Under the pieces are notes generated by a model. The model saw nothing but the letters and a program-made list of their open reading frames with translations. It made no database searches and was not told the origin of the DNA. Made by a program: the position numbers and the translations under genes. This document shows positions 22,751 to 49,859 of a stretch of 64,000 nucleotides of DNA, piece by piece. Source of the DNA: Escherichia coli (GTDB taxonomy: Bacteria > Pseudomonadota > Gammaproteobacteria > Enterobacterales > Enterobacteriaceae); assembly GCF_003334335.1 (NCBI RefSeq), contig NZ_QOWQ01000011.1, one strand, 5' to 3'. Each line of letters starts with the position of its first letter. Position 1 is the stretch's first letter.

Positions 22751-24016
22751 TCAAACATCCATGCCCAACGCTCGCTTACCGTGAATGTTGAGGTCGGCAA
22801 GCGTAAAGCGTCCTTCCCAGTTTGTTTCATAGTCCTCGCGCGGGAAGTCGCCCGGTGATGCGCCTTTTTCCAGTGCGGCCTTCACCTTGTGCGCGTAGGC
22901 AAGATTTTTCTCGCACATCGGTGCCGCAGGAATGTACATCACGTTGCCCCAACCTTGTTGATTTTCAACGGGGGCAACGGAATGGATGACGTCGCAGTGC
23001 CACCAGACGGAGTCTCCGGCTTCGAGTTTTGGAATGCTGGTTAACGCCTCAATCAACAGTGGATGCCATTGCTCTGATACCGGCAATACTCTTCCGGGCG
23101 CTACGCCGCACAGTTCATCCTCCGGCACATCATCAAGCAGCGGACGTAACAGTACGTACGCCATAGCTTCAGGAATGGGCACGACGTGCAGCAGCCCCTG
23201 ACCAGGCAGCATATCAGAGAGCGCTGTCCAGCCCTGGAATGTCCGAAACACGGAACATTTGGTGGTGTTGTCCACCGTGTACTCTTCAACTTCCGTACGA
23301 TGTGCCGCATGCCAGGGATCATATTGCGCCAGATTGCCATTAAAGACGTTGGCGAAAACGCGCTGATACGCTGGAAGCAGCCAGCGTTCCAGTGCCCCGG
23401 AGTCGGTATGCGCTCCAAGACCTTTGGAGGTCGTTCCGGGCGGACGGCGGCGGATACGGTCAGGGTAGATGACGCTCACATCCGGGTTAAACCATTGCTT
23501 TCCATCACTTTCAAATGTCCACAGACGATTGAGAAACGACTGCGCATTCGCCATTTCTTCACTCTGGCGGGCCTGCATTTGCGCCTGCGACCAGTAGATG
23601 GGGTAAATCTCGGGACGTGAAGCGCTGAGCGTCCCGAAGAAATTATCGCCGGGGCCTTTGTAGACCTCGTCAAAGCGGTTGCGGTCCAGATAGTCCAGCA
23701 TCGACTGATCCCAGCCTAGCGCTTGTTCGCGGGGGAAATGGCCTTTTATCACCGCACAACCGCGACGTTTAATCTGTTCGCGCTGCTCTGCAGTAACATG
23801 ACCTGCTTTGATATCGGCATAAGACAGCACCGGCCAGACGGTATCGCCCTGTGCTTTGAGTGCGTTGATTTCAGCCACTCGCGTGGCAATGTCATCGCTT
23901 AGCTGATTAAAGATCTGCTGGACGTCGCCAAGCTGCGCCCGCAGCGCGTGCTTCATCTGACGGATAGCTGCTTTGTGATCGGCAGGCAATGTGTCGCTGG
24001 TAAAAGTAGAAGCCAT
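22751..24016 (-). CDS. ybiU: DUF1479-family protein of unknown function
   Basis: Start trimmed to MASTFTSDTLPADHK (421 aa); recognised YbiU. Confidence 0.88.
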   Translation of the reverse strand: MASTFTSDTLPADHKAAIRQMKHALRAQLGDVQQIFNQLSDDIATRVAEINALKAQGDTVWPVLSYADIKAGHVTAEQREQIKRRGCAVIKGHFPREQALGWDQSMLDYLDRNRFDEVYKGPGDNFFGTLSASRPEIYPIYWSQAQMQARQSEEMANAQSFLNRLWTFESDGKQWFNPDVSVIYPDRIRRRPPGTTSKGLGAHTDSGALERWLLPAYQRVFANVFNGNLAQYDPWHAAHRTEVEEYTVDNTTKCSVFRTFQGWTALSDMLPGQGLLHVVPIPEAMAYVLLRPLLDDVPEDELCGVAPGRVLPVSEQWHPLLIEALTSIPKLEAGDSVWWHCDVIHSVAPVENQQGWGNVMYIPAAPMCEKNLAYAHKVKAALEKGASPGDFPREDYETNWEGRFTLADLNIHGKRALGMDV

Positions 24017-24167
24017 AACCACCTCTCATTAACTTTCATTCGAAACCATTCTGATTTGCATGTGACAATATAAGTTATAAATAAGTTAATGCAAGTTTAA
24101 TGATTTGATGTGATGTACAGGATGTAAAAAGAAGGGAAAACCGGAGCGCACGGCTCCGGTAGAGAGG

Positions 24168-24983
24168 TCAGCTGTTAAAAGGGGATGTGTTATCCAGCAC
24201 CGCCTGAATCACATTCAGCGCGCCTTCATGATTATTATCATCGGTAGCGTAACGGGCGATTTGTTTAATGTTTTCCGCAGCATTGCCCATCGCAAAGGAA
24301 TAACGCGCCATTTTCAGCATCTCCGCATCGTTACCGCTGTCGCCAATCGCTACCACATTTTGCGGTGACAGATCCCAGCGTTTCAGTAACCGCGAAATAC
24401 CGTTTGCTTTATGTAGACCGGGAATAATCAGGTCGATAAAGCCAAAACCACTGGTAACGGGTTTCATAATGCCATCGAGCGCTACGTGCAGTTTGTCGAT
24501 CACTAACGGGATTTGTTCATCCGGCAGGTTGAGCGAAAACTTGAACAGTACGTCGTCAATCTCCTGATAATCTTTTACAGGTTTCAGGCGATGGTAGTGT
24601 TTTGCCATCAGTGCGACAAATGCTTCGGGGGCATTTTCGCTGACATATGCACTTTGCAGACCGCAGGCGACAAAATTGAGTTGCTTATCTTTTAGCAACT
24701 CGCCAATAACAATCCGCGATTCATGTCGGGTCAGTTCGCCGTGGAACAACTGCTTGCCATGTTCGTAAACCAGTGCGCCGTTTTCCGCGACAAAAGAGAT
24801 CTCATCCTTTAGCTCAGGAAAGAATGAAATAAGCTGGTAATACTGATTACCGCTGGCAACAACGAACTTAATGCCGCGCTTTTTCAGTTCCTGATATTGC
24901 GCCATAAAACGTGGTTGGTTGTACGTTTTGGCGTCGTTAAGAAAAGTACCGTCCATGTCTGTGACGATAACTTTTACGCTCAT
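24168..24983 (-). CDS. ybiV: HAD-superfamily Cof-type sugar phosphatase
   Basis: 271 aa; HAD motif I DMDGT (VTDMDGTFL), GDSGND motif; paralog of ybjI in this window. Confidence 0.94.
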
Positions 24984-25128
24984 AGGTGTGCTCCTGGCTC
25001 GAAAATGAAACCGTAACAGTGTAATAACAATGTGACGCAGAGCACAAATTATATTTCGAATGAAAGTAAGGATGAAATTGATGATGTGAATGATTTAGCC
25101 CGGCGACGACGCCGCCGGGCCGAGGAGA

Positions 25129-27561
25129 TTACAGCATATGTTCAGTACGGGCGATGATATCGTCCTGAGCGTCTGGAGAGAGCGCGGTGAAGAACGCGGA
25201 ATAGCCCGCGACACGCACTACCAGATCGCGATACTGATCGGGATGTTTTTTCGCATCCAGCAGCGTTTCGCGGGAAACGATGTTGTACTGAATATGCCAG
25301 CCTTTATGCACTTCAAAGAAGGTACGCAGCAGGATCATCAGTTTCTGCTTGTCAGATTCGTTCTCCAGCGTTGCCGGATTCAGTTTCTGGTTGAGCAACA
25401 CGCCGCCGAGAATCGCTGCCGTAGGCAGTTTACCCACTGAGCCAATGACCGCAGTAGGGCCAAGATGGTCAGTACCGGAGGCCGGGCTTGCGCCTTCTGC
25501 CAGCGGGGTGTGGGCTTTACGCCCGTCCGGTGTTGCCATAGTCTGCGCGCCAAACGGTACGTTAGCGGAGATTGATGACGTACCCGCGTAATAGTTGCCG
25601 CCAACCGGACCACGACCGTAGCGCGGATTATGGTACTGTTTCAGTTCGTCGATATAGGTCTGATAAGCGCGAGCCAGCAGCGTATCGACAGTATCATCGT
25701 CGTTGCCGTACTTCGGCGCACCGTTAATCAGCCGCTGACGCAGCTGCTCGTGAGTCAGGCCGTCGAAGTCATCTGCCAGTGCGGCAGCAAGCTGTTGCTG
25801 ACCAATCGCACCTTGTTCAAACACCAGTTTCTTCACTGCCGCCAGGCTGTTGCCGAGGTTGGCAATGCCGACCTGCAGGCCAGAAACCCAGTCATATTTC
25901 GCGCCGCCTTGCTTGATACTTTTCGCTCGCTCAATACAGTCATCCACCAGCGCCGAGCAGAGAATATCGTGCACGTTCTCTTCCAGCATGGTGTCGACGA
26001 CATATTCGATTTCGATTGATTTGCGGGTGTAGTAACGGATTTGCGTATCCCACGCGTCCATCACTTCATCGAAGTTGTTGAAGTTACCTGCCGACAACGC
26101 TTTTTCTTGTGGCAGGAACACTTTGCCGCTGGTGGCATCATGCCCGCCTTCCAGCGCCGCCAGCATCACGCGGGCGAAGTTGATAAAGCTCATGCCGGTA
26201 CAGCGATAGCCCCATTTGCCACCGACGGCGGTTTCTATACAACCAATCGCTGCGTAGTCATAAGCGTCCTGCGGTTCAATACCGAGTTTAATAAATTCCG
26301 GGATCACGATTTCGTCGTTGTTGAACGCCGGCATCCCGAAGCCGCAACGGATCACCTGTACGCAGGCGTCGAGGAAATCGTTGCTCATTCCTGCATGGTA
26401 ACGCACGCTGAGGTTAGGCTGAGTGGAACGCAGGCGACCGCAGGATTCGAGGATCGCGTAAGAGAGTGGATTCACCGCGTCCATTGGTTGACCATCAACC
26501 AGATTTTGCCCGCCAATAGTGACGTTCTGATACAGCGGACTTCCCGCAGAGGCTTTTGAGTGTGAGCCGGAGCGGATCTTGTTCACTTCCAGCAGTTTCA
26601 GCCAGCAGCTATGCAGCATCTCGATGGCGTGTTCGCGATCCAGCGTCTGGTTGAGTTCAACGTCGCGGCGATAGTACGGGTAGAGATACTGGTCCATACG
26701 ACCAAACGATACTGAGTGACCGTTAGATTCGATCTGCAAAATCAACTGGATGAAGTAACACAGTTGCAGCGCCTGCCAGAAAGTCTGCGGCGGCTGGTGG
26801 GCGATAAGATCGCAGTTTTCTGCCATCGCCAGCAGTTCATCGCGACGGCTTTCGCGGGTTTCGGTCGCGGCCATTTCACGCGCCAGGGCAGCGAAACGTT
26901 CAATGTGTTCACTGACTGCCACCAGCACGATATCAATCGCTTTCAGGAATTGCTCACCGTGTAAATCTTCCAGCACCGTCAGGTTGATGCGCGAGCGACG
27001 TTCCGCTACTTTCTCGCGCAGACCATCAAGCCCTTTTTCCAGCAGCAGCGGGAAATTCACCGCCAGGTGCGCATCGCCGGAGGTCATATTGCCTTCCGCT
27101 TTAATGATTCCGGTCGCCAGCAGACCTTTTTGCTCATCGGTAAACATGCCGTAGCAGCGATCCTGTACGGTCTGACCGCGCCACCACGGGCACACTTCAT
27201 GCAGAACGCGTTTGTTCTCTTCGCTCACCGCAAAGCCAGCACCGGGACGATCTGCCAGATCATCAATCTCTTTTTCGATCCACGAGACAGTATATTCCGG
27301 GAAGATCGGCGCGGCGCGAACTTCGCTTGCCTGGTTGCCAATGATCAACTCATCGTGTTTGATCCAGATGGTGCGATTCGCCAGGTGATGCGCCAGTGCC
27401 AGCGCGCGACGTACCGGGATCGGCTTATCGAGATGTTGTTGATACATCTCGGTATAGTGCTGCGCGCGCTCGGTACAGACTGGCGGTTTCACAATATGCA
27501 CCAGCGCATTTTTGTGCGCTTTAATGCGGTCGCTGAGCGTGTCCAGTTTCAGTGTGGTCAT
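25129..27561 (-). CDS. ybiW: Glycyl radical enzyme (pyruvate formate-lyase-like; substrate unknown to me)
   Basis: 810 aa; C-terminal glycyl-radical signature RVAGYSA. Confidence 0.95.
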   Translation of the reverse strand: MTTLKLDTLSDRIKAHKNALVHIVKPPVCTERAQHYTEMYQQHLDKPIPVRRALALAHHLANRTIWIKHDELIIGNQASEVRAAPIFPEYTVSWIEKEIDDLADRPGAGFAVSEENKRVLHEVCPWWRGQTVQDRCYGMFTDEQKGLLATGIIKAEGNMTSGDAHLAVNFPLLLEKGLDGLREKVAERRSRINLTVLEDLHGEQFLKAIDIVLVAVSEHIERFAALAREMAATETRESRRDELLAMAENCDLIAHQPPQTFWQALQLCYFIQLILQIESNGHSVSFGRMDQYLYPYYRRDVELNQTLDREHAIEMLHSCWLKLLEVNKIRSGSHSKASAGSPLYQNVTIGGQNLVDGQPMDAVNPLSYAILESCGRLRSTQPNLSVRYHAGMSNDFLDACVQVIRCGFGMPAFNNDEIVIPEFIKLGIEPQDAYDYAAIGCIETAVGGKWGYRCTGMSFINFARVMLAALEGGHDATSGKVFLPQEKALSAGNFNNFDEVMDAWDTQIRYYTRKSIEIEYVVDTMLEENVHDILCSALVDDCIERAKSIKQGGAKYDWVSGLQVGIANLGNSLAAVKKLVFEQGAIGQQQLAAALADDFDGLTHEQLRQRLINGAPKYGNDDDTVDTLLARAYQTYIDELKQYHNPRYGRGPVGGNYYAGTSSISANVPFGAQTMATPDGRKAHTPLAEGASPASGTDHLGPTAVIGSVGKLPTAAILGGVLLNQKLNPATLENESDKQKLMILLRTFFEVHKGWHIQYNIVSRETLLDAKKHPDQYRDLVVRVAGYSAFFTALSPDAQDDIIARTEHML

Positions 27562-27566
27562 GGTTG

Positions 27567-28466
27567 TTATCCTCGTAAGGTCGCGGTTAACCCTTTCTGG
27601 CAGGCATACTGCTGGGCAAAGTCGAGCAGTTCTGGCGCATCAAGCGGTTTTTCCGGGGCGTCATAGGGCAGATTAAGTAAGTGATATTTGTTGATGCCCA
27701 GCGTGTGGTAGGGCAGAAAATGAATTTCGCCAACGTGCAGCTCGTCGGCGGCAAAATCGGTAATGGCTTTTACAGAGGTTTCGTCGGCATTAAAGCCCTG
27801 AATCAGCGGCACGCGGATAATGATTTTTTTGCCCGCTGCGGCGAGTTTTTTCAGGTTATCCAGCACTCTGGCGGCGTTACCGTCGGTCCACTGTTTAAAC
27901 GGCGCGTCGGCAACGTGTTTTAAATCGGCAAGAAACAGATCGATATAGGGCAGAGAAGGGGCGATATATTTCCACGGCACATGCAGACAGGTTTCTACCG
28001 CAGTATGAATGCCTGCCTCGTGGCTGGCTTGCAGTAGCGCCATCGCCATTTCCGGCTGCATAAAGGGCTCACCACCCGAAAGCGTTAAACCGCCGCCGCT
28101 GCGATCGTAAAACGGTTTATCGCGCAGAACGGTCGTCATGATCTCCTCAACGCTTTTCACTTCACCACACACGGTTAATGCCTGTGTCGGACAGCAGTCG
28201 GTTAACGCCGTCAGATGCTCCGGGGTTAACTTTTCCCGATGAATAAGCAAACCATTCAGCGCGCGCTCAATCACTTCCGGCGCGGCCTTAGCGCACAGCT
28301 CGCAGCCTTCCAGACACAGTCGTGCGTCATACAGCAGATCCTGCGTGCGGGCGCGGCTTTCCGGGTTCTGACACCAGCGGCAGCCCAGCGAACAGCCTTT
28401 AAGAAATACGACCGTGCGGATACCGGGGCCATCATGGGTCGAGTAGCGCTGAATATTGAAAATCAT
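27567..28466 (-). CDS. ybiY: Glycyl-radical-enzyme activating enzyme (radical SAM)
   Basis: Start trimmed to [18 protein letters not shown]; radical SAM CxxxCxxC (CSLGCRWC) plus extra Cys clusters; 5 nt upstream of ybiW on the same strand. Confidence 0.92.
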
Positions 28467-28596
28467 AGTTGCCTCTCTATTTCGTTCAAGCATTAAAATA
28501 CTTTCGAATGAAAGTTAGATTGATGTGCGTCAACTGTTCAGAGAGTTTTCCCGTGATAGTCTACATTCAGACAAAAAGTACATTTTGAGGATGGTT

Positions 28597-48626: not shown

Positions 48627-49859
48627 ATGCAAAATAAATTAGCTTCCGGTGCCAGGCTTGGACGTCAGGCGTTACTTTTCCCTCTCTGTCTGGTGCTTTA
48701 CGAATTTTCAACCTATATCGGCAACGATATGATTCAACCCGGTATGTTGGCCGTGGTGGAACAATATCAGGCGGGCATTGATTGGGTTCCTACTTCGATG
48801 ACCGCGTATCTGGCGGGCGGGATGTTTTTACAATGGCTGCTGGGGCCGCTGTCGGATCGTATTGGTCGCCGTCCGGTGATGCTGGCGGGAGTGGTGTGGT
48901 TTATCGTCACCTGTCTGGCAATATTGCTGGCGCAAAACATTGAACAATTCACCCTGTTGCGCTTCTTGCAGGGCATAAGCCTCTGTTTCATTGGCGCTGT
49001 GGGATACGCCGCAATTCAGGAATCCTTCGAAGAGGCGGTTTGTATCAAGATCACCGCGCTGATGGCGAACGTGGCGCTGATTGCTCCGCTACTTGGTCCG
49101 CTGGTGGGCGCGGCGTGGATCCATGTGCTGCCCTGGGAGGGGATGTTTGTTTTGTTTGCCGCATTGGCAGCGATCTCCTTTTTCGGTCTGCAACGAGCCA
49201 TGCCTGAAACCGCCACGCGTATAGGCGAGAAACTGTCACTGAAAGAACTCGGTCGTGACTATAAGCTGGTGCTGAAGAACGGCCGCTTTGTGGCGGGGGC
49301 GCTGGCGCTGGGATTCGTTAGTCTGCCGTTGCTGGCGTGGATCGCCCAGTCGCCGATTATCATCATTACCGGCGAGCAGTTGAGCAGCTATGAATATGGC
49401 TTGCTGCAAGTGCCTATTTTCGGGGCGTTAATTGCGGGTAACTTGCTGTTAGCGCGTCTGACCTCGCGCCGCACCGTACGTTCGCTGATTATTATGGGCG
49501 GCTGGCCGATTATGATTGGTCTATTGGTCGCTGCTGCGGCAACGGTTATCTCATCGCACGCGTATTTATGGATGACTGCCGGGTTAAGTATTTATGCTTT
49601 CGGTATTGGTCTGGCGAATGCGGGACTGGTGCGATTAACCCTGTTTGCCAGCGATATGAGTAAAGGTACGGTTTCTGCCGCGATGGGAATGCTGCAAATG
49701 CTGATCTTTACCGTTGGTATTGAAATCAGCAAACATGCCTGGCTGAACGGGGGCAACGGACTGTTTAATCTCTTCAACCTTGTCAACGGAATTTTGTGGC
49801 TGTCGCTGATGGTTATCTTTTTAAAAGATAAACAGATGGGAAATTCTCACGAAGGGTAA
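48627..49859 (+). CDS. mdfA: Multidrug efflux MFS transporter
   Basis: 410 aa, 12-TM MFS; recognised MdfA/Cmr. Confidence 0.96.

Follow-up and report, generated by a model that had tools for sequence, protein, structure and literature searches.

Escherichia coli ybiV and ybjI, two Cof-type HAD-IIB phosphatase genes very probably separated by a duplication that preceded the radiation of the core Enterobacteriaceae

The window analyzed here, a 64,000-nucleotide stretch of Escherichia coli DNA (contig NZ_QOWQ01000011.1), belongs to the chromosome and has the standard gene order: ybiT, ybiU, ybiV, ybiW, ybiY, fsa, moeBA, iaaA, gsiABCD, pdeI, dgcI, rimO, bssR, yliI, gstB, dacC, deoR, ybjG, mdfA, ybjH, ybjI, ybjJ, rcdA. 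Two of these genes, ybiV and ybjI, encode Cof-type HAD-IIB phosphatases. They lie on the same strand, their starts are 26,102 bp apart, and both open reading frames (ORFs) lie exactly where an original prediction had put them when it described a pair about 26 kb apart. The features relevant to the two loci are the following.

22751..24016, minus strand: ybiU, DUF1479 protein, downstream of ybiV (ORF and annotation)
24140..24160, minus strand: terminator-like GC hairpin with a T-rich tail, TTTCCCTTCT, 8 nt past the ybiV stop codon (predicted by consensus scan)
24168..24983, minus strand: ybiV (supH), Cof-type HAD-IIB sugar-phosphatase, 271 aa (ORF; RefSeq name on 100% identical DNA)
25129..27561, minus strand: ybiW, glycyl-radical enzyme, directly upstream of ybiV and co-directional with it (ORF and annotation)
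27567..28493, minus strand: ybiY, glycyl-radical activating enzyme (longest ORF and annotation; the annotated start is probably internal to this ORF)
48627..49859, plus strand: mdfA, multidrug MFS efflux pump, a conserved neighbor of the ybjJ-ybjI pair (ORF, annotation and synteny)
49900..50184, minus strand: ybjH, small protein, downstream of ybjI (ORF and annotation)
50270..51085, minus strand: ybjI, Cof-type HAD-IIB phosphatase (FMN / ARPP phosphatase), 271 aa (ORF; RefSeq name)
51085..52293, minus strand: ybjJ, MFS transporter (ORF and junction sequence; MFS family matches are weak)

Each phosphatase gene had been described as sitting beside a transporter or metabolic gene, and this holds for both: ybiV is located between ybiW and ybiU, and ybjI follows directly after ybjJ. 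The ybiW-ybiV spacer measures 145 bp. Within it, right after the ybiW stop codon, we found a GC-rich inverted repeat, GCCCGGCGGCGTCGTCGCCGGGC, at 25097-25120 on the minus strand; because it has no clear T-tract, this repeat may be a weak terminator or an RNA-stability element. At the second locus, the TGA stop codon of ybjJ overlaps the ATG of ybjI by one base (TGATG), an overlap which suggests that ybjJ and ybjI constitute an operon with translational coupling. The ybjI ATG is at 51085; the TTG that precedes it by one codon is not annotated as the start. In strain 300709, a P2-like prophage lies just beyond rcdA, beside the ybjJ-ybjI operon (L002:17177-29201), with genes for an integrase, CI, CII, a replication endonuclease, ogr, a portal protein and a terminase.

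Both genes are near-universal in the species. A megablast comparison of 1.2 kb around each gene with 5,426 complete genomes of E. coli matched the ybiV region in every one of them and the ybjI region in 5,423; a ybjI-region match covering 80% was missing from five. An IS1A/IS1B element interrupts ybjI in several of the complete genomes, and for each region five matches fell on records labelled plasmid.

The identity of the two products was established from several sources. RefSeq features on 100% identical E. coli DNA name them sugar-phosphatase YbiV and, for ybjI, 5-amino-6-(5-phospho-D-ribitylamino)uracil phosphatase. The ybiV product matches the solved YbiV/SupH structures (PDB 1RLM, 1RLO, 1RLT and 2HF2) over its full length, residues 1-271 to 1-271 with E=5e-180, and no difference was found; together with the RefSeq name and the ybiW-ybiV-ybiU context, the 1RLM match places it in the YbiV orthologous group. 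In the same way, the RefSeq name on identical DNA and the ybjJ-ybjI context place the second product in the YbjI group, and no difference from E. coli YbjI was found. The PDB copy searched contains no YbjI structure, since the best solved match for this protein is YbiV, at 51% identity.

At the level of the family, both proteins exceed the curated cutoff of 137 bits of the Cof-type HAD-IIB profile TIGR00099, with scores of 221.3 (YbiV) and 192.7 bits (YbjI), each aligned to profile positions 1-256 of 256, and both are thus members of the subfamily. All four catalytic motifs of HAD superfamily phosphatases, DxDG(T), the Ser/Thr of motif II, the Lys of motif III and the acidic (G)DxxND of motif IV, are present in both, and residues D9, D11, T13, S44, K192, D215, N218 and D219 are identical between them. 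In the NCBIfam profile search neither protein reached an equivalog cutoff. Cof, YbhA, YidA and YigL have the same fold family (TIGR00099/TIGR01484) and catalytic motifs, but their equivalog models scored far under cutoff on both proteins. Streptococcus mutans SMU.1108c (PDB 3L7Y) belongs to the same Cof subfamily and aligns with either protein at ~174-179 bits. Some representatives of the subfamily are of double length with two matched stretches, or carry the unit as the C-terminal part of a far longer protein (P0009, 528 aa; P0073, 540 aa; P0103, 1275 aa), and the double-length ones are apparent fusions of two Cof-type units.

One candidate relationship was considered and rejected. The B. subtilis YcsE-type proteins (NF045966) are Cof-type HAD phosphatases reported, like YbjI, to dephosphorylate ARPP and FMN (PMC8475336), and NF045966 was the second-best NCBIfam match for both E. 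coli proteins. The scores of 109.9 bits for YbiV and 99.4 bits for YbjI are under its cutoff of 220, and since YbiV outscores YbjI the match is uninformative on riboflavin specificity. We therefore did not consider YbjI an ortholog of the YcsE-type riboflavin phosphatases.

Compared with each other, YbiV and YbjI align without gaps by BLASTP, with 139 identities in 270 positions (51%), 67% positives and E=3e-101, well clear of the value of about 30% identity below which their paralogy was to have been abandoned. Their description as two Cof-type HAD phosphatases with long common blocks is borne out: all four of the quoted peptide blocks occupy identical positions in the two proteins, among them a 22-letter block, FVAENG and the pair formed by a 12-letter block and DLIIPGVHKANG, which is at residue 184 in each. 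A search of the whole window by tblastn with both proteins found no third copy. E. coli has been reported to have seven Cof-like paralogs, YbiV and YbjI among them (PMC3040653), and the other Cof-type proteins of E. coli K-12 that we compared (Cof, YbhA, YidA, YigL) are 21-26% identical to YbiV or YbjI. The two are each other's only close relative in E. coli. To this extent the term close paralogs is justified, although closeness in the sense of recency is overstated for proteins that are 51% identical and are separated by about as much from Firmicute homologs (45-52%).

The long identical blocks would be consistent with a recent duplication, or with ongoing gene conversion between the two loci, but the DNA leaves this explanation with next to no probability. 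The two genes are 57% identical in nucleotide sequence and 38% identical at third codon positions, no DNA-level match between the two regions is better than 71% over 213 nt, and by the Nei-Gojobori method pS is 0.80, past the saturation limit, with dN at 0.44. In addition, orthologs of the two copies fall in separate clades with congruent genus groupings in the first of the trees described below. The identical blocks coincide with the HAD motif regions and are thus explained by purifying selection. We rejected recent duplication and gene conversion on the saturation of synonymous sites, and the same saturation, together with the occurrence of both orthologs across the core Enterobacteriaceae, agrees with the prediction that the duplication is ancient.

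Similarity is unevenly distributed along the proteins. Identity is 70% over residues 1-80, 37% over residues 81-182 and 51% over residues 183-271, so that the core is 60% identical and the cap (~residues 81-182) 37%. Outside the genes, similarity stops at the ends of the coding sequences: blastn and tblastx comparisons of 7 kb around each gene revealed neither flank paralogy nor repeats of the kind left by a segmental duplication.

We analyzed the genomic context of both genes in other bacteria, using the best 80 of at least 505 relatives found in representative bacterial genomes with a two-protein alignment query and ranked by similarity to YbiV. Orthologs of YbiV accounted for 34 of these 80 loci, with 75-98% identity, in Escherichia, Citrobacter, Salmonella, Enterobacter, Lelliottia, Klebsiella, Kluyvera, Kosakonia, Pluralibacter, Trabulsiella, Pseudocitrobacter, Phytobacter and others; ybiW adjoins ybiV in 33 of the 34, and ybiU does so in most. 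Another 33 loci among the best 80 carried YbjI orthologs (64-96% identity), in the same genera and additionally in Cedecea, Siccibacter, Dryocola and Yokenella. There ybjJ abuts ybjI in every case (33/33), usually with mdfA on the other side. Because each ortholog has kept its own neighborhood across the core Enterobacteriaceae genera, the duplication predates their radiation. Both genes are on one contig in 18 genomes of this sample; 16 of these have them 21-29 kb apart, and 17 have them on one strand. This layout, like the duplication, is thus older than the radiation of these Enterobacteriaceae.

Several departures from these arrangements were observed. In Superficieibacter electus (L024:2797-10193), the one YbiV locus lacking an adjoining ybiW, the gene is located between moeB and ybiT, without ybiW, ybiY, fsa or ybiU; the phosphatase has thus been retained there without the glycyl-radical cluster at its locus. 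In Salmonella enterica subsp. diarizonae CCUG 30040T (L011:4477-9322), ybiV is on the plus strand and its neighbors ybiU and ybiW on the minus strand, as if this gene alone had been inverted; in all other YbiV loci among the best 80 of at least 505, the three have a common direction. In an uncultured Cedecea sp. (L048:4799-12448), ybjJ-ybjI abuts mntR-ompX-rhtA-dps-glnH, and the ~35 kb lying between these two gene groups in E. coli, within which the ybiV region falls, are elsewhere or missing.

The remaining loci of the sample carry more distant relatives. The copies of Mangrovibacter, Entomohabitans and Shimwellia are 58-61% identical to YbiV; that of Pantoea sp. Mb-10 is 52% identical to YbiV and 50% to YbjI; those of Yersinia, Rouxiella, Rahnella and an Enterobacterales MAG are 46-56% identical; and those of Listeria newyorkensis, Breznakia and two Bacillus species show 45-52% identity to YbiV as well as to YbjI. 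The Firmicute homologs have the same length and motifs, but they belong to another phylum and have no synteny with the ybiW or ybjJ contexts. Neither neighborhood was found around any of these non-ortholog relatives among the best 80 of at least 505 loci, and the enterobacterial ones adjoin instead smrA/fnr, melR, exoX/ptrB, ansP with a GGDEF regulator, or an MCP gene. The homolog of Rahnella inusitata (L078:2691-6819) closes a co-directional run of three genes, serine-hydrolase/beta-lactamase-like, ROK-kinase-like and MFS. The product of the MFS gene is 29% identical to YbjJ, and the run may distantly echo the arrangement of ybjJ and ybjI.

Phylogenetic trees were obtained by neighbor joining from Kimura-corrected protein distances with 200 bootstraps. 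In the first tree, made from the 80 loci (the best of at least 505) and four E. coli outgroups, the Firmicutes branch first, followed by the Yersiniaceae-type copies and then by a pair of clades united with 70% support, YbjI (79%) on one side and Pantoea plus the Mangrovibacter-type/YbiV clade (96%) on the other; within the latter, the Mangrovibacter type and YbiV form a group with 100% support. The second tree, to which 117 full-length representatives were added, is arranged otherwise, with the Yersiniaceae copies joining YbjI (48%), the Pantoea and Mangrovibacter copies joining YbiV (63%), and the joint clade at 27%. The stem branch of YbiV is 0.19, compared with ~0.06-0.07 for YbjI, and its N-terminus reads KVIVTDMDG where YbjI and all outgroups have KLIAVDMDG. 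This long stem and divergent N-terminus make YbiV look like the faster-evolving, derived copy. Two enterobacterial lineages can clearly be distinguished in these comparisons, and by this reckoning the duplication that separated YbiV from YbjI goes back at least to the Enterobacteriaceae crown. The phylogeny proposed for dating the duplication thus supplies this minimum age, although bootstrap values of 27-70% at the deep nodes leave the order of earlier events loosely fixed.

Taken together, these observations make it very probable that ybiV and ybjI, the two known E. coli members of one subfamily of Cof-type HAD-IIB phosphatases, derive from a single-gene duplication before the core Enterobacteriaceae radiated, followed by divergence of the cap and by fixation in separate neighborhoods. 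Where the second copy arose is a different matter. The original prediction called the duplication local, and what stands of this is the proximity of the two genes, their common strand and their conserved spacing. We calculated that two given genes would fall within 26 kb of each other on a circle of ~4.9 Mb with a chance of about 1%. The other marks of a local event were not seen: the 7 kb flanks have no paralogy, no two copies lie within ~12 kb of each other as a tandem intermediate would (among the best 80 of at least 505 loci), the YbiV-side relatives of Mangrovibacter, Shimwellia, Entomohabitans and Pantoea occupy four different, unrelated loci, and the deep nodes that bear on the question have the low support given above. 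An in situ origin of the second copy is plausible, with chances that we regard as roughly even.

Alternatively, the duplication may have occurred at or near the base of the Enterobacterales, or the copies may have been dispersed, with differential loss and relocation making the 26 kb proximity secondary or coincidental. Four-point quartet analysis is relevant here. YbiV grouped with the Mangrovibacter type in 100% of cases, and the arrangement pairing YbiV with Pantoea and YbjI with Yersiniaceae was obtained in 92%. Like the second tree, these groupings of Pantoea with YbiV and of Yersiniaceae with YbjI imply two lineages older than the Enterobacteriaceae, and the positions of the Pantoea/Mangrovibacter- and Yersiniaceae-type relatives at unrelated loci, as well as the dissimilar flanks of ybiV and ybjI, would be expected from such a history. 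However, it leaves the low chance of such proximity and the conservation of strand and spacing across genera to be accounted for, and the first tree puts the Yersiniaceae outside both the YbiV and YbjI clades. When Firmicutes were included, the quartet uniting YbiV with YbjI against Yersiniaceae and Firmicutes was recovered in 56% of quartets and 68% of group-mean bootstraps, versus 37% and 31% for YbiV with Firmicutes against YbjI with Yersiniaceae. We consider this non-local history a real but minority possibility.

A third explanation is that already-diverged members of the subfamily were acquired by independent horizontal transfer, for example from Firmicutes, in which case ybiV and ybjI would be xenologs. 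Mean identities are 48.7% between YbiV and YbjI, 45.6% between YbiV and Firmicutes, 49.4% between YbjI and Firmicutes and 52.5% between YbjI and Yersiniaceae, so that the Listeria, Bacillus and Breznakia homologs are about as similar to both proteins as these are to each other. The subfamily is also large beyond the enterics, a threshold of E<=1e-30 giving 607 representative clusters at the 50% identity level, and the GC contents of ybiV (46.7%, GC3 52%) and ybjI (45.6%, GC3 48%) are below those of ybiW, ybiU, ybjJ and mdfA (GC 52-55%, GC3 58-63%) and of the whole window (51%). This low GC could reflect a foreign ancestry of the subfamily or plain codon usage. In both trees all Enterobacterales sequences form one group with the Firmicutes outside it, which speaks against transfer, although the bootstrap for this group is 27-29%. 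Furthermore, the quartet of YbiV with Yersiniaceae against YbjI with Firmicutes was essentially never recovered (1 of 500), that of YbiV with Firmicutes against YbjI with Yersiniaceae is equally explained if the Yersiniaceae copies are YbjI orthologs, and two independent insertions 26 kb apart on one strand are unlikely. Transfer therefore appears improbable, and we retain a single-gene duplication as the source of the pair.

What the two enzymes do can be considered in the light of their residues and of published work. By analogy with the family, Asp9 would act as the nucleophile, with Asp11 in the same DxDGT motif, Ser44 and Lys192 would belong to the catalytic set as well, and Asp215, Asn218 and Asp219 would serve for Mg2+. 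As the full HAD catalytic set is present in both, YbiV and YbjI would each be expected to hydrolyze phosphomonoesters via a Mg2+-dependent aspartyl-phosphate intermediate. The HAD-IIB cap is the substrate-specificity surface. Divergence between the two proteins is thus concentrated mainly in the inserted, substrate-selecting domain, and the change sits where an altered substrate would be expected.

This pattern fits the published substrates: YbiV acts on sugar phosphates, YbjI on FMN and on ARPP, an intermediate of riboflavin synthesis. YbiV has been employed as a sugar-phosphate phosphatase acting on mannose-6-P and glucose-6-P (PMC12801476). YbjI shares with YigB the ability to dephosphorylate ARPP and FMN, and deleting ybjI or yigB singly does not cause riboflavin auxotrophy (PMC7017516, PMC8475336); as cited in these two articles, the activity of YbjI goes back to Haase et al. 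(2013) and Kuznetsova et al. (2006). The link of ybjI to the riboflavin pathway is thus documented, as the original prediction stated, and the suggestion of subfunctionalization agrees with the literature insofar as functions have diverged and the published substrates differ (PMC7017516, PMC8475336, PMC12801476).

The neighborhoods may offer further indications. According to Ma et al. (JACS 2024, as cited in PMC12441222), the glycyl-radical enzyme YbiW turns 1,5-anhydroglucitol-6-phosphate into 1-deoxyfructose-6-phosphate. YciT, a regulator of the DeoR type, binds at ybiV, ybiY and fsaA and influences the expression of these genes (PMC8464067). The ybiV gene is fixed behind the ybiY-ybiW glycyl-radical sugar-phosphate cluster, whose YciT regulation it is reported to share, and ybjI would be coupled to the MFS transporter gene ybjJ. 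We propose, as a speculation that we regard as doubtful, that these neighborhoods correspond to dedicated rather than promiscuous roles, with YbiV as an overflow phosphatase of the YbiW/FsaA pathway and ybjJ-ybjI as a phosphatase-exporter module. If so, YbiV would act as a safety valve by dephosphorylating accumulating 1,5-AG6P or 1-deoxyfructose-6-phosphate, a role that would explain both the position of ybiV behind ybiW in nearly all of its loci and the shared YciT regulation. The cargo exported by the ybjJ-ybjI module, if it exists, would be a dephosphorylated flavin precursor or a sugar.

The paralogy of ybiV and ybjI, the structures of YbiV, the family membership of both proteins and their differing substrates are already known, and beyond the correct annotation of the two genes our results matter little. 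They place the duplication before the core Enterobacteriaceae, and they add that YbiV and YbjI have diverged from each other about as far as from their Firmicute homologs, and that a local duplication is not confirmable from sequence. They also add that ybiV and ybjI are each locked in a different conserved operon context, which provides testable hints on physiological roles that are still poorly defined.
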